From contig DAOVBC010000001.1 in the NCBI GenBank assembly GCA_030670715.1, forward strand, positions 1 to 28,364: a stretch of 28,364 bases of DNA, in the 5' to 3' direction. Origin of the DNA: Deltaproteobacteria bacterium. Its GTDB lineage: Bacteria; Desulfobacterota; Desulfobacteria; Desulfobacterales; SG8-13. How positions within the stretch are numbered: the stretch's first letter is position 1; each line of letters starts with the position of its first letter. Made by a program: the position numbers and the translations under genes. Positions 13,917-27,177 of the stretch are shown here, piece after piece. Below the pieces are notes generated by a model, which worked only from the letters and a program-made list of their open reading frames with translations, was not told where the DNA came from and searched no databases.

Positions 13917-14008
13917 GGATCAGATGCTGGATACTGGTTTCTGGATACTCGATCATAAAATGAACTGATCCTTATTTTATCCAGTATCAAGTGGCAAGGA
14001 TCTGGTCC
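13917..14008. repeat. Heptamer tandem/inverted palindrome A
   Basis: GGATCAG ATGCTGG ATACTGG TTTCTGG ATACTCG, spacer, then CCAGTAT CAAGTGG CAAGGAT CTGGTCC. Confidence 0.65.
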
Positions 14009-14260
14009 ATTGTGGCACAAATGTTCTTTTTCACGATGTTGACATTTCTGGTTCTCCGTCGGCGGATCCAGATTAAAGTTTAACTATCTGAAATTTTATC
14101 TTAATACATAGTTTACCTACCCTATTAAAACGGATAAAAAATACTATAAGGTCAAATTAAAAAAAATCGTCCAATAGTTGATTTTTACCTGTAAAAAAGT
14201 TGGTTTTACATGAAATGTCTACAGGATAATGCTCGGGGTTGTAAACCGGAAAGGAAACCG

Positions 14261-15034
14261 CTATTCGTCCGTTTGGCCTTTCAGATACGATTTGGCCGCC
14301 TGCCACGTATCAGACAGAATCCGAAGGGTACCCTGACGGCACTCTGTTCGGAAGCCAAACATCTCGCTAAACGCTTCCGAGTTTCTTCTCATTTCTTTTT
14401 CGGACATAACCGGTGTGGTTATCAGGAGGGATCGTTCATAATCTTTGAATAGCCGTTTGGCCATATCTATACTTATGTTGCCGAACTCCTGTTCAAACAT
14501 TCGATGCCAATGGTTGGTCCAGCCCGGCAGCATGAAGAAAGTTCCCGGGACCTTGCACTGCTCCCCGTAATAGCAGCTGCGCCCGCCGATGAGCAATCCA
14601 ACGCAGTCATCCACCGGGTGATCATCGTCCATGGGGATAAAGACCGGCACTCCGGCGTCCGAAAGCAACTCATCGGGTTTTTCGAGGGCATTTCCGCACA
14701 GCCCGTAACCGAGCAGCAGGGCATCCACATAGGGTCCCATAACCCGGGCTGCTTGAATCAATCCCTGCTGAAGGGTTTGCTTTCGATTGTGAAGACCTAA
14801 TTCAAGAACACGAACGATTACGTTTATTCGATTTTGGGGATCAGGTCTGAATGACTCCAGGTCGGGGTGCCGCTGCACCTGCTGCGGTTTAAACGCTTCA
14901 AGGATTTCAATCATGCGCGCCGACCGGGAGTCTTCCAGAATTGCGACCCGTGCGATTTCAGGGTCCTCATTCAGAAGATGGGCGAATTCGAGTTCCAGAA
15001 TTTCACATGTCAGTATTCCCAGGGTTCCCATCAA
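14261..15034 (-). CDS. DUF1638 domain-containing protein
   Basis: GILTCEILE, ELGLH, LLGYGLCGN, VDDCVGLLIGG and TFFMLPGW motifs. Confidence 0.85.
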   Translation of the reverse strand: MMGTLGILTCEILELEFAHLLNEDPEIARVAILEDSRSARMIEILEAFKPQQVQRHPDLESFRPDPQNRINVIVRVLELGLHNRKQTLQQGLIQAARVMGPYVDALLLGYGLCGNALEKPDELLSDAGVPVFIPMDDDHPVDDCVGLLIGGRSCYYGEQCKVPGTFFMLPGWTNHWHRMFEQEFGNISIDMAKRLFKDYERSLLITTPVMSEKEMRRNSEAFSEMFGFRTECRQGTLRILSDTWQAAKSYLKGQTDE

Positions 15035-15113
15035 GCATGCCTTCCAGATACAGATTCAATTATTTAAGTCAACTCCGGATCGCGCTGTATTTACACCGAA
15101 TCAAAACTCGCAG

Positions 15114-15641
15114 CTAAAATTCGATCCCTTTCTGTGCCTTCACCCCTTTATAATAGTGATGCTTTATTTCCTTCATTTCCGTAACCAGATCGGCAATCTC
15201 CATAAGGGGTTTTTTTGCGTTGCGTCCGGTCAGTATCAGATGAAGTCCGGGAGGTTTCTGTTTTATGACCGCCATCACCTCATCGATTTGAAGCAGTCCG
15301 AAATCGATCGCCATGTTAATCTCATCGAGGACGATCAGATCATAGGCCTCGCTTTCCATGGCTTTCTGAAAAGCCTGAAGACCCAAATGCGCTTTATGTA
15401 TATCAATCGGCTCACAGGCCCTGCTCTGAAAAAATACCGCGTGGCCATACTGTTTAAGGGTGATGGGCAGGCTGGTTTCGGCGAATGCTTTCATCTCACC
15501 GATGTTTTTTTGACCCTTCATGAACTGCAAAATAAGCACCTTTAAACCCTGACCCGCAGCCCGGATGGCAGCTCCGATAGCCGCTGTGGTCTTGCCTTTC
15601 CCGTTTCCAGTATGAATGCAAATCAGCCCTTTTCGACGCAT
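15114..15641 (-). CDS. cobO: Cob(I)yrinic acid a,c-diamide adenosyltransferase (CobO/BtuR)
   Basis: HTGNGKGKTTAAIG, QFMKG, LDEIN, LILTGR, ADLVTEM and HHYYKGVKAQKGIEF. Confidence 0.95.
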   Translation of the reverse strand: MRRKGLICIHTGNGKGKTTAAIGAAIRAAGQGLKVLILQFMKGQKNIGEMKAFAETSLPITLKQYGHAVFFQSRACEPIDIHKAHLGLQAFQKAMESEAYDLIVLDEINMAIDFGLLQIDEVMAVIKQKPPGLHLILTGRNAKKPLMEIADLVTEMKEIKHHYYKGVKAQKGIEF

Positions 15642-15652
15642 TTAAACCTCTG

Positions 15653-25334: not shown

Positions 25335-25388
25335 GACATACCTCCTCCATTTGATAACTCTGGTTTTAAATATTCTCTTCACACCTGA

Positions 25389-25470
25389 GCTGAAGGCTGA
25401 AAGCTCAAAGCTGAAAGCAAAAGACTGGTTTCGCTCTTACCCTTTGAGCATTGAACCTTGAGCTTCGAGC
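25389..25470. repeat. Heptamer tandem/inverted palindrome E
   Basis: GCTGAAG GCTGAAA GCTCAAA GCTGAAA, spacer, then TTTGAGC ATTGAAC CTTGAGC TTCGAGC. Confidence 0.8.
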
Positions 25471-26402
25471 TAATTCACGCTCGGCCTGGGATGCAGTCCG
25501 GCGCGTTCCACGATTTCCGGCACCTTTTCTTCCCATTCAATGGCCATAATGTGAAATCCACTCACCCCTTTTACTTCCTTGAGACGTTGTATCGCTTCAA
25601 CGCAGATGTCGATCCCCTCCTGCGCCTGTTTTTCTTTGGGGGTGTCTGCCATCCGCTTGACAATATCATCCGGCACATCCATGCCCGGTACCCGGTTTTT
25701 CATATAGCGCGCCATCCCGGCGGACTTCATCGGGGTAAGACCGGCAAGGATATACACTTTTTCGTTCAGCCCGCGGTCACAGACCTTTTTCATCCAGTCT
25801 TCGAACTTGTCAAGATTGTAAATGCACTGGGTCTGAATGAATTCGACCCCGGCCGCAATCTTCTTCGCCAGGCGGGGGACACGGATCTCATACGGGTCGG
25901 CAAATGGATTGGCCGCCGCTCCGACAAACATCTGCGGTGGCCGCTTGATGTCATCACCGCCCAGGAACTTGCCGTCATCGCGCATGTGCCTGACGGTCTG
26001 GATCAATTGCATGGAGTCGATATCATGGACATTCTGACCCTGGGCACAGTCTCCGAAACTCTGGTGATCGCCGGAAAGACACAGGATGTTGTGGATATCA
26101 AACGACGCCGCCCCGAGGATGTCGCTTTGAAGTGCGATCCGGTTGCGGTCCCGCGTGACCATCTGCAGAACCGGTTCCACCCCCATCAGTTTGAGCCGGA
26201 TACAGGCAGCCAGACTGCACAGGCGTGTCATGGATGTCTGGTTGTCGGTGACATTGATGGCATCGACATGATCCTTGATAAGATTGGCCTTTTCAGTGAT
26301 GACTTCCGGGTCGCTGCCGCGGGGAGGCCCGCATTCCGACGTAACGGCCAGATGCCCGGCAGTCAGAATTTTTTCCAGTTTACTCGGTGTATTCGTGCTC
26401 AT
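25470..26402 (-). CDS. metF: Methylenetetrahydrofolate reductase, flavin subunit
   Basis: SECGPP, INVTDN, VTRDRNR, LCLSGDH, ANPFA and FIQTQ motifs. Confidence 0.95.
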   Translation of the reverse strand: MSTNTPSKLEKILTAGHLAVTSECGPPRGSDPEVITEKANLIKDHVDAINVTDNQTSMTRLCSLAACIRLKLMGVEPVLQMVTRDRNRIALQSDILGAASFDIHNILCLSGDHQSFGDCAQGQNVHDIDSMQLIQTVRHMRDDGKFLGGDDIKRPPQMFVGAAANPFADPYEIRVPRLAKKIAAGVEFIQTQCIYNLDKFEDWMKKVCDRGLNEKVYILAGLTPMKSAGMARYMKNRVPGMDVPDDIVKRMADTPKEKQAQEGIDICVEAIQRLKEVKGVSGFHIMAIEWEEKVPEIVERAGLHPRPSVN

Positions 26403-27067
26403 AGTTCCACATCCTCCCTGACGACTTTGCGTGGTCCTCCGGCTCTGTCGGTGGACCAGTCTTTTAACGGTGATATATTTTCATAGTCATCCATCCGGCC
26501 GAGGGCCTTCAGCCGATCAATGATCAGCTGCCACCCGCACTCCAGCTCTTTGTCTACTTCACATTTACCGGAGGCGGAACCGCCGCAGGGGCCGTTGAAA
26601 ATGCGTTTAGCACAGCGGGATACCGGGCAAATACCGCCGGTGCTGGCCAGAATGCACTGACCGCAACCCTGACAGCGCTCCGTCCAGACACCCCGTGCTT
26701 CGGTAACGCCCATAAAAAGGGTGTTGACACCCGGATAGATCGGCTTGGATTGATATTTTTCAGCCATAAACTGAACGCCGACCCCGCAGGCAATGGAAAC
26801 CACCGCATCATAGTCATCGATGATGTCGCGAATTTCCTCAAGGTATTCGTGATCACACTGCCTCTCCAGGGTCCGCTCTGCGATGTTCACCTCACGGCCC
26901 TGCTGCAGAAAGTGCATCCTTAGCGCCGAGGCCAGAATGCCGACTTCTTTTTTACCGCCGGCCTCGCAGACCGTTACACACTCGTTGCAACCCAGAACAA
27001 GAATGCTCTGGTGATCCTTAATTGTCTCGATGATCTCCTCGATCGGTTTTTTATCGGCAACAATCAT
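26399..27067 (-). CDS. metV: MetV (MTHFR C-terminal-domain Fe-S/Zn subunit)
   Basis: MIVADKKP, GCNECVTVC, RQC, ACGVG and CQGCGQC...CPVSRC...GPCGG...C...CGW. ATGA overlap with metF. Confidence 0.92.
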   Translation of the reverse strand: MIVADKKPIEEIIETIKDHQSILVLGCNECVTVCEAGGKKEVGILASALRMHFLQQGREVNIAERTLERQCDHEYLEEIRDIIDDYDAVVSIACGVGVQFMAEKYQSKPIYPGVNTLFMGVTEARGVWTERCQGCGQCILASTGGICPVSRCAKRIFNGPCGGSASGKCEVDKELECGWQLIIDRLKALGRMDDYENISPLKDWSTDRAGGPRKVVREDVEL

Positions 27068-27091
27068 AAGACATGACCTCACTTTTATCTT

Positions 27092-27177
27092 GGTTTTAAG
27101 TTTAAGGTGTTAGGTTTTAGGCCAACAGGGAAACCGTCAATTTTTTACTTAAAACATAAAACCTAAAACCCGGAACC
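27092..27177. repeat. Heptamer tandem/inverted palindrome F
   Basis: GTTTTAA GTTTAAG GTGTTAG GTTTTAG, 27 nt, then CTTAAAA CATAAAA CCTAAAA CCCGGAA. Confidence 0.75.

Follow-up and report, generated by a model that had tools for sequence, protein, structure and literature searches.

Periodic fold-back elements in the operon spacers of a Desulfobacterales genome are probable miniature members of dispersed, PF05635-associated families

Catalogues of tandem heptamer repeats in bacteria go back to 1990, and to our knowledge the repeats have no accepted origin or function. Among them, the short tandemly repeated repetitive (STRR) sequences of heterocystous cyanobacteria are abundant, mostly intergenic tandem heptamers with a patchy distribution. 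Here we describe five intergenic elements, E1–E5, in a 28,364-nt stretch of DNA (the window) that forms contig C169 of a Desulfobacterales metagenome-assembled genome (MAG; 2.28 Mb, 320 contigs, ~71% complete, 49.5% G+C). Four of them lie in the spacers of a gene cluster running from hdrA to aroE. We consider that E1–E5 are probably miniature members, lacking an open reading frame (ORF), of dispersed, apparently mobile and slippage-prone fold-back families. The kind of element is already known, having been catalogued in Geobacter and Xanthomonas, and its design is related to that of the ORF-bearing intervening sequences (IVS) of rRNA.

In Geobacter metallireducens, sites with four or five tandem units each (GTTGCTYN, TCTCCGTS[Y] and MTYCTGA), paired on opposite strands, were read as putative global regulator binding sites, classes 1–3, and no link to PF05635 was reported (Aklujkar et al. 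2009, PMC2700814). As here, these are multi-copy intergenic sites with tandem 7–9-nt units in opposite-strand pairs at variable distance. The units are similar rather than identical, GTTGCTYN corresponding to GTTGCGG, MTYCTGA to WTWCTGG, and TCTCCGTS[Y] to CTCCGTTT (AAACGGAG, 8 arrays); the present genome differs in having more unit families, at ~1 element per 5 kb. Xanthomonas campestris and X. axonopodis carry 70–75 convergent pairs of GGGAATC heptamers, 89–93% of them intergenic, that lie mostly between co-oriented ORFs and in 7–8% of cases between divergent ones. Their length and sequence vary even among close species, they form G-quadruplexes in vitro, and polymerase slippage has been cited as favouring heptamers (PMC4692102). 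Heptamer arrays, convergent inverted pairs, residence in co-oriented spacers and scarcity in divergent ones are common to both systems, whereas Xanthomonas uses one G-tract unit, and the present genome has many families, no G-tracts and no GGGAATC.

PF05635 is the ‘23S rRNA intervening-sequence protein’ family, with a four-helix-bundle fold. The 23S IVS of Coxiella burnetii carries such an ORF (S23p), and its ~28-bp terminal stem is cut by RNase III, which removes the IVS from the RNA; GACAGAT heptamers in its arm differ in number between strains, and the IVS is regarded as selfish (PMC4990558). The ORF-bearing elements of the present genome and its relatives share this layout, with terminal inverted repeats around a PF05635 ORF, although they occupy mRNA operon spacers rather than 23S rRNA helices, and E1–E5 hold no ORF. 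The assembly contains no 23S rRNA gene, and E1–E5 sit between protein-coding genes, not in 23S helix 25 or 45.

Two further systems are more distant in design. The TAACTGA repeats of Beggiatoaceae and cyanobacteria are nearly all direct and lie beside start codons, with one inverted in 170 (PMC4679880), whereas in this genome inverted pairs predominate (59 to 7) and the units differ. Tandem-heptamer architecture and a mostly intergenic location are shared with them, and also with STRR sequences. The REP, BIME and REPIN sequences (repetitive extragenic palindromes, bacterial interspersed mosaic elements and REP doublets forming hairpins) are short palindromes of extragenic DNA that occupy transcribed spacers and may form mosaics, and REP/REPIN sequences are regarded as mobile DNA that is non-autonomous and depends on a protein encoded at another locus, REPINs needing a REP-associated tyrosine transposase (RAYT) (PMC3116915). 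The location in transcribed spacers and the occasional mosaics recur here; REP arms, however, lack tandem periodicity, and no RAYT was found in the incomplete (~71%) MAG.

An earlier note on this DNA had described inverted, degenerate tandem arrays in five spacers, with 7-nt units in four and a 9-mer form in the other, and this description holds (Table 1). Tandem Repeats Finder (TRF) gives a period of 7 for E2 (both arms), E4 and E5 (right arm only), and of 9 for E3 (both arms); E1 is too degenerate for a TRF call, its periodicity being visible by eye. The arms of the five span 19–44 nt and are 70–100% complementary: 44 nt at 70% in E1, a perfect 19-nt stem with additional registers in E2, 16–21 nt at 84–94% in E3, 23 nt at 74–83% in E4, and 29 nt at 76% in E5. 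Multiple alternative pairing registers are available at every site, as the notion of register-slipping stems had it. A central loop is likewise present throughout, and the 22–28 nt first given for it depends on register, its length varying from 16 to 44 nt. What the five have in common is therefore as proposed, namely two inverted arms of tandem units around an A/T-rich loop, written in several unit alphabets.

Table 1. Positions of the periodic elements in the window
Element	Position	Strand	Unit and form	Location or remark
E1	13904..14021	none	degenerate fold-back, CTGGATA / ATACTGG heptamer family	downstream of TSCPD-domain gene (12868-13815, minus)
E2	23320..23402	none	fold-back, GTTGCGG / GTTRCGN heptamer family	between HdrD-like gene and aroE
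E3	24781..24868	none	fold-back, TGCCTAAAA nonamer family	between response-regulator gene and HdrD-like gene
E4	25388..25470	none	fold-back, GCTGAAA / GCTCAAA heptamer family	between metF and response-regulator gene
E5	27091..27178	none	degenerate fold-back, GTTTTAG / GTTTTAA heptamer family	between mvhD and metV
Extra direct array	18717..18745		TGCGCTA heptamer, ~3.6 units (TRF)	absent from the earlier note's list

Relative to shuffled sequences, the sense-strand RNA folds have z-scores of -2.0 (E1), -5.2 (E2), -3.6 (E4), -5.9 (E3) and -1.5 (E5), so that E2–E4 are far stabler than shuffles and E1 and E5 are weak hairpins. No PF05635 ORF is present in the 16–44-nt loops. A shared loop core, an A-run followed by CGGTTT, was seen by eye in E2–E5 and dropped, as it occurs at 10 of 136 hairpin centres genome-wide against ~3% expected; the general signal of such centres is A/T-richness only. 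The E2 loop was also considered as an ORF remnant, and by eye showed no likeness to the inner ends of the ORF-bearing GTTGCGG element.

Arrays of this kind are greatly over-represented in the genome. In 973 intergenic spacers (302 kb, 43% G+C) compared with 10 dinucleotide-preserving shuffles, 280 arrays of period 7 were found (shuffle mean 2.4), 70 of period 8 (1.1) and 106 of period 9 (0.6), an excess of more than 60-fold that excludes chance, the outcome that had been named as refuting the pattern. Periods 5, 10 and 11 showed no excess in the same spacers. Period-7 arrays with at least two reverse-complement units inside 75 nt number 94, compared with 0–2 in whole-genome Markov simulations. 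A clear hairpin is formed by part of the class only, an ungapped inverted-repeat score of at least 9 being reached at 43% of periodic loci (20% of control spacers) and one of at least 12 at 27% (8% of controls).

Within the window the unit does differ from element to element, as the earlier note said; each, however, belongs to a genome-wide family. Families were defined from raw unit counts over 637 arrays, single-linkage clustering under rotation having merged all units into one cluster. ACTGGAT and its close variants, the family of E1, account for ~80 arrays; AAC[C/T/A]CG[C/T] (E2) for 67; AAAACCT / AAAACTT (E5) for 28; AAAGCTG / AAAGCTC (E4) for 16; and AAAATGCCT-type nonamers with their variants (E3) for ~20. 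Further 7-, 8- and 9-mer families coexist with these, among them AGCGCAT with 8 arrays, which includes the direct array at 18717..18745, where no inverted partner was seen. The units of the window thus belong to dispersed families of 16–80 arrays, and some recur in other genera.

BLAST searches of E1–E5 against the genome returned 37–170 matches on 22–45 other contigs. E2 has 82 arm matches on 45 contigs around a unique loop, and GTTGCGG-type matches number 31 genome-wide. E1 has full-length copies, loop included, on contigs C26 (90% over 69 nt) and C130 (89% over 76 nt). Neighbouring arrays of the same unit are inverted in 59 cases and direct in 7, and the arm order is fixed within families, with the G/T-rich arm first in 40 pairs and the A/C-rich arm first in 9; since the pairs are inverted, this polarity reads alike on either strand. 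Family-typical ends such as TGTTRCG...CGYAACA are present, and in some spacers several families form a mosaic or hairpins are nested. The earlier claim that geometry and not sequence is conserved is not supported: the families recur, E1 copies are ~90% identical, the unit of E4 is retained in the closest relatives, and arm units travel together with particular clades of PF05635.

On visual inspection, each of the three PF05635 genes in the genome is enclosed by inverted tandem arrays. The gene at positions 6082-6447 of contig C261, in an element at 6050-6543, is bracketed by GTTRCGR arrays, the family of E2; the third, on C89, has poorly matched arrays that fall below the automatic criterion used for counting. 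By that criterion (inverted arrays of one 7–9-nt unit within 220 nt), 20 of 27 PF05635 genes from this genome and 20 relatives are bracketed, against 0 of 51 controls shifted by 900 nt at the same loci, and the genes are co-oriented with their neighbours. GGTTTTA arms, the family of E5, flank a PF05635 gene in relative G006, and GCGCTAW arms, comparable with the array at 18717..18745, do so in relative G019. In a maximum-likelihood (ML) tree of 25 PF05635 proteins the grouping follows the arm unit, with a GTTGCGG-armed group (support 100/99), a GTGTTTG-armed group, and a group with 8-mer GGAGAAAC/GGCGAAAS arms (100/99).

Arms and gene recur together at many sites. In six relatives (loci L111, L120, L121, L123, L125 and L126; genomes G003, G005-G008 and G012) the spacer immediately preceding mutL (start MSKIRILPE) contains a PF05635 fold-back element, and this X-mutL spacer is occupied by the GTTGCGG clade in two cases and by the GTGTTTG clade in four. 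Two clades with two arm units in one spacer suggest a recurrent insertion site or the replacement of one element by another. In the present genome the GTTGCGG clade is found at a site other than X-mutL. More than 5,800 public proteins match the GTTGCGG-clade protein at E < 1e-5, the best 120 of them being 73–87% identical, and two homologues from other metagenomes that were looked up (76–78% identical) again have GTTRCGR arms, at gcvP2-lplA and at mshE-SMC_N (a RecN/SMC-type ATPase gene). PF05635 and its arms are thereby found at at least five different sites for one clade. The number of units is also unstable: the 5' GTTGCGR array beside an identical PF05635 protein and flanks has 4, 10 or 12+ units in different samples, and at a second site it has 7 or 8 units; the 3' array is constant (metagenome contigs L142-L149 and L132-L133). 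Shared arms, many sites and varying unit number together indicate that arms and gene travel together and that the arrays change length fast. The generative repeat process proposed earlier is borne out by such differences between samples with an identical flanking gene. The protein of the GTTGCGG-armed element matches PDB entry 2GSC, which is XCC0516 of Xanthomonas campestris, a PF05635 homologue that has been crystallised. The start codon of XCC0516 is overlapped by a GGGAATC array; this overlap is listed in the supplement of the Xanthomonas study, the main text being silent on it (PMC4692102).

Across the genome, the arrays are strongly intergenic. After merging of arrays less than 80 nt apart into 435 loci, and with a codon-usage-scored set of gene calls that is still imperfect, 354 loci (81%) are intergenic, as against ~18% of the genome. 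A bias towards operon spacers, which had been anticipated, is evident, with 1.30 loci per kb in co-oriented (tandem) spacers, 0.98 in convergent and 0.40 in divergent ones; of 580 co-oriented spacers of at least 80 nt, 200 hold a locus. By the same crude gene calls, 79 of the 435 loci have no further gene before the contig end. In the metagenomes, depth peaks occur at every repeat-bearing bin, which points to arms abundant in the community. Periodic elements of this kind thus fragment assemblies and produce spurious depth peaks in sediment metagenomes.

The minus-strand cluster that holds E2–E5 comprises hdrA (a fragment, truncated by the window end), mvhD, metV, metF, a response-regulator (RR) gene, an HdrD/GlpC-like Fe-S gene and aroE, in an order conserved across Desulfobacterales. 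Its MetF places the MAG in Desulfobacterales, and the best named relatives are from uncultured delta-proteobacterial/Desulfobacterales MAGs (85–91% amino acid identity) and Desulfonema magnum (86%). The mvhD gene extends beyond the listed ORF to 27182-27619 (minus strand), its ATG start at 27619 overlapping the hdrA stop, and contains an in-frame TGA at 27571-27569 within the motif FCCNF-U-GYTAADLAG. This stretch, with the in-frame TGA, is conserved in 11 of 11 family-relative loci that cover the region, and the product is probably a selenocysteine MvhD. Similarly, a 247-aa Fe-S ORF and a 151-aa CCG-domain ORF, ~120 nt apart in all relatives, are fused through a single in-frame TGA at 24032-24030 (NTE-U-GHEFF) into a 438-aa HdrD/GlpC-like protein at 23457-24773 (minus strand). 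Two apparent gaps in the cluster are therefore coding, read through in-frame TGA, probably as selenocysteine (Sec), and four true intergenic gaps remain: mvhD-metV (99 nt), metF-RR (87 nt), RR-hdrD (168 nt) and hdrD-aroE (163 nt). Each contains one element (E5, E4, E3 and E2, respectively), in agreement with the statement that every sizeable gap of the cluster is filled.

Orthologous spacers reveal the unit turnover for which such a comparison had been recommended. In the metF-RR spacer, the closest relatives (MetF ~91% identical; L009/L091, L090, L092 and L093) keep the GCTCAAA-type palindrome of E4 with different loops, and more distant ones (L094-L096 and L098-L100) mostly have a different inverted array, of CGCAGAGnn 9-mers. 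The RR-hdrD spacer of more distant family relatives holds GGCCTAACG-type nonamer arrays, the hdrD-aroE spacer of the sole readable relative (L009) is 441 nt long and carries other arrays, and no E5-like array occurs in the mvhD-metV spacer of the 11 family-relative loci in which this spacer is readable. Across 80 loci of the order, strict periodic hairpins in or near the cluster number 15 and use many different units; one is a GTTGCGG hairpin, and Desulfonema magnum (L035) has TTGAGAA hairpins.

This DNA was matched in marine-sediment and cold-seep DNA metagenomes and in no RNA run, and E2, E4 and E5 were found in contigs of other samples, E2 and E5 each in two; one of the two E5 contigs has a 1-nt loop deletion. 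In one marine-sediment contig with ~96% identical flanks, the 208 nt at 13872-14079, which include E1, are missing, with 12 unrelated bases in their place. Since the arms also occur at other loci and in other organisms, metagenome joints within the repeats cannot be relied on.

From these observations a course of events can be proposed. The arms, two inverted tandem arrays of a family-specific 7–9-nt unit, would in full-length members enclose a small PF05635 gene co-oriented with the host operon; arms and gene would spread as a single unit into new intergenic sites, where the arrays would then expand, contract and degenerate through replication slippage. Most surviving copies would be those in transcribed spacers, where the flanking genes are co-oriented or convergent, with promoter-bearing divergent spacers depleted of them. 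Mobility would then be the cause of the multi-site distribution, and the five short elements of the window would be derivatives or trans-dependants of the ORF-bearing forms. Overall, they are most likely selfish DNA, prone to slippage and apparently mobile, whose presence in transcribed spacers is tolerated.

Several observations weigh against this reading. Clear fold-backs make up only 27–43% of periodic loci (8–20% in controls), and many loci are single arrays or mosaics. ORF-bearing copies in the assembly are limited to the GTTGCGG and GGAGAAAC families and the gene on C89, and none was found there for the families of E1, E3 or E4. Because the loops of E2–E5 are unique, with arms alone matching elsewhere, copy-and-paste of a whole element is seen for E1 only. 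No RAYT (Y1 transposase, PF01797), other transposase or reverse transcriptase was found in the ~71%-complete MAG, and no target-site duplications were seen at the element ends inspected; of the features of a miniature inverted-repeat transposable element (MITE), inverted ends and full-length E1 copies are present, with no cognate transposase identified. Finally, the coupling of clade and unit seen in related genomes could stem from the inheritance of whole elements from a common ancestor instead of from recognition of arms by the protein: relatives share labels by descent, so that the coupling alone is no proof of recognition.

Other explanations have been considered, the first being the role in segmental mRNA stability and subunit stoichiometry that the earlier note had inferred. 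Here the stems would be selected RNA elements of the hdrA-mvhD-metVF-RR-hdrD-aroE transcript, acting as stabilisers or RNase III sites that set segment half-lives and stoichiometry. REP elements in E. coli operons do show such mRNA effects. The argument gains from the presence of elements in all four real operon spacers, the folding of E2–E4, the retention of place and unit by E4 in the closest relatives, the enrichment of the class in co-oriented spacers, and the cleavage of the homologous rRNA IVS by RNase III in its stem (PMC4990558). Selection as RNA should make transcribed-strand mismatches favour G:U over A:C, yet 67 co-oriented loci gave 53 G:U-type and 45 A:C-type mismatches (p = 0.48, a comparison of low power), with no difference in minimum free energy (MFE) between sense and antisense. 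E1 and E5 barely fold better than shuffles, E5 is absent from all relatives that have the same operon with a readable spacer, and the E1 region is dispensable in the ~96%-identical contig. Moreover, roughly a third of spacers carry such an element, irrespective of the operon, and arm length varies about threefold (4 to 12+ units) between samples. A terminator scan found no U-tail or intrinsic terminator at any of the five, nor an excess in the region, and the whole window has no Rfam match at gathering score. The strand symmetry, the absence of E5 from relatives and the dispensable E1 region leave the proposed selection for mRNA stability or stoichiometry without support, and this explanation appears improbable. 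An RNA role such as RNase III cleavage is nevertheless plausible by analogy: like the homologous rRNA IVS, 20–30-bp stems in polycistronic mRNA may be RNase III substrates, and any effect on the operon would then be a by-product rather than a selected function.

The tandem units might instead be putative cooperative sites for a protein, either a nucleoid protein (IHF/HU, as proposed for Geobacter) or a PF05635 pentamer, with the inverted pairs shaping local DNA or regulating neighbours. Four or five units per arm in opposite-strand pairs match the ‘global regulator binding sites’ of Geobacter (PMC2700814), the coupling of PF05635 clade and unit is what specific protein-repeat recognition would produce, and polarity is fixed within families. 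The roughly threefold per-kb depletion in divergent, promoter-bearing spacers, however, is the wrong placement for transcription-factor sites, the units are degenerate and unstable in number, and several families have no cognate gene in the assembly, all of which makes this an unlikely account. Less likely again is that slippage alone is at work, the arrays arising and growing in situ, neither mobile nor functional, and becoming inverted pairs by local template switching. Unit number is certainly polymorphic, both here and in Coxiella strains (PMC4990558), slippage has been held to favour heptamers (PMC4692102), and the unique loops of E2–E5 and the many single arrays or mosaics would fit. Local growth would not, however, be expected to put the same few units at dozens of loci and in other genera, give families typical ends (TGTTRCG...CGYAACA), yield 59 inverted against 7 direct pairs of fixed polarity, bring arms and ORF together to at least five unrelated sites, or place full-length E1 copies elsewhere.

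The preferred reading of E1–E5 as miniature fold-back elements allows a wider proposal, which we put forward tentatively and rate as possible at best. PF05635 proteins may be the cognate partners of fold-back elements, each clade recognising its own 7–9-nt arm unit as DNA or RNA, and the two together may constitute a widespread mobile class without a canonical transposase. ORF-less derivatives would then include the heptamer repeats of Desulfobacterota, Geobacter, Xanthomonas and Coxiella/Leptospira rRNA, and possibly of cyanobacteria, and would behave in operons as RNase III-cleavable inserts. The window adds a clean example of tandem heptamer repeats in a Wood-Ljungdahl/Hdr operon. With arm units that bracket PF05635 genes, clades that track units, many sites and unstable unit numbers, it also offers a testable handle; should the protein bind its own arms, rRNA IVS, heptamer repeats and the Geobacter ‘global regulator sites’ become one element family.

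Other repeats were observed in the window. Between a histidine-kinase gene and aroE, at ~22113-22400, lies an element of ~280 bp whose long terminal inverted repeats are not periodic, at a metagenome depth of 250–545 as against ~10–30 over neighbouring genes; the excess indicates a multi-copy, MITE-like repeat of a kind different from the periodic arrays. The segment at 17468-17963 has a metagenome word depth of 460–1300 and is thus a high-copy sequence in the community. In the spacer downstream of the gene at 18154-18618, a G+C-rich perfect hairpin at 18796-18822 (CTGGCCCCGC...GCGGGGCCAG), with A/T runs on either side, looks like a bidirectional terminator.

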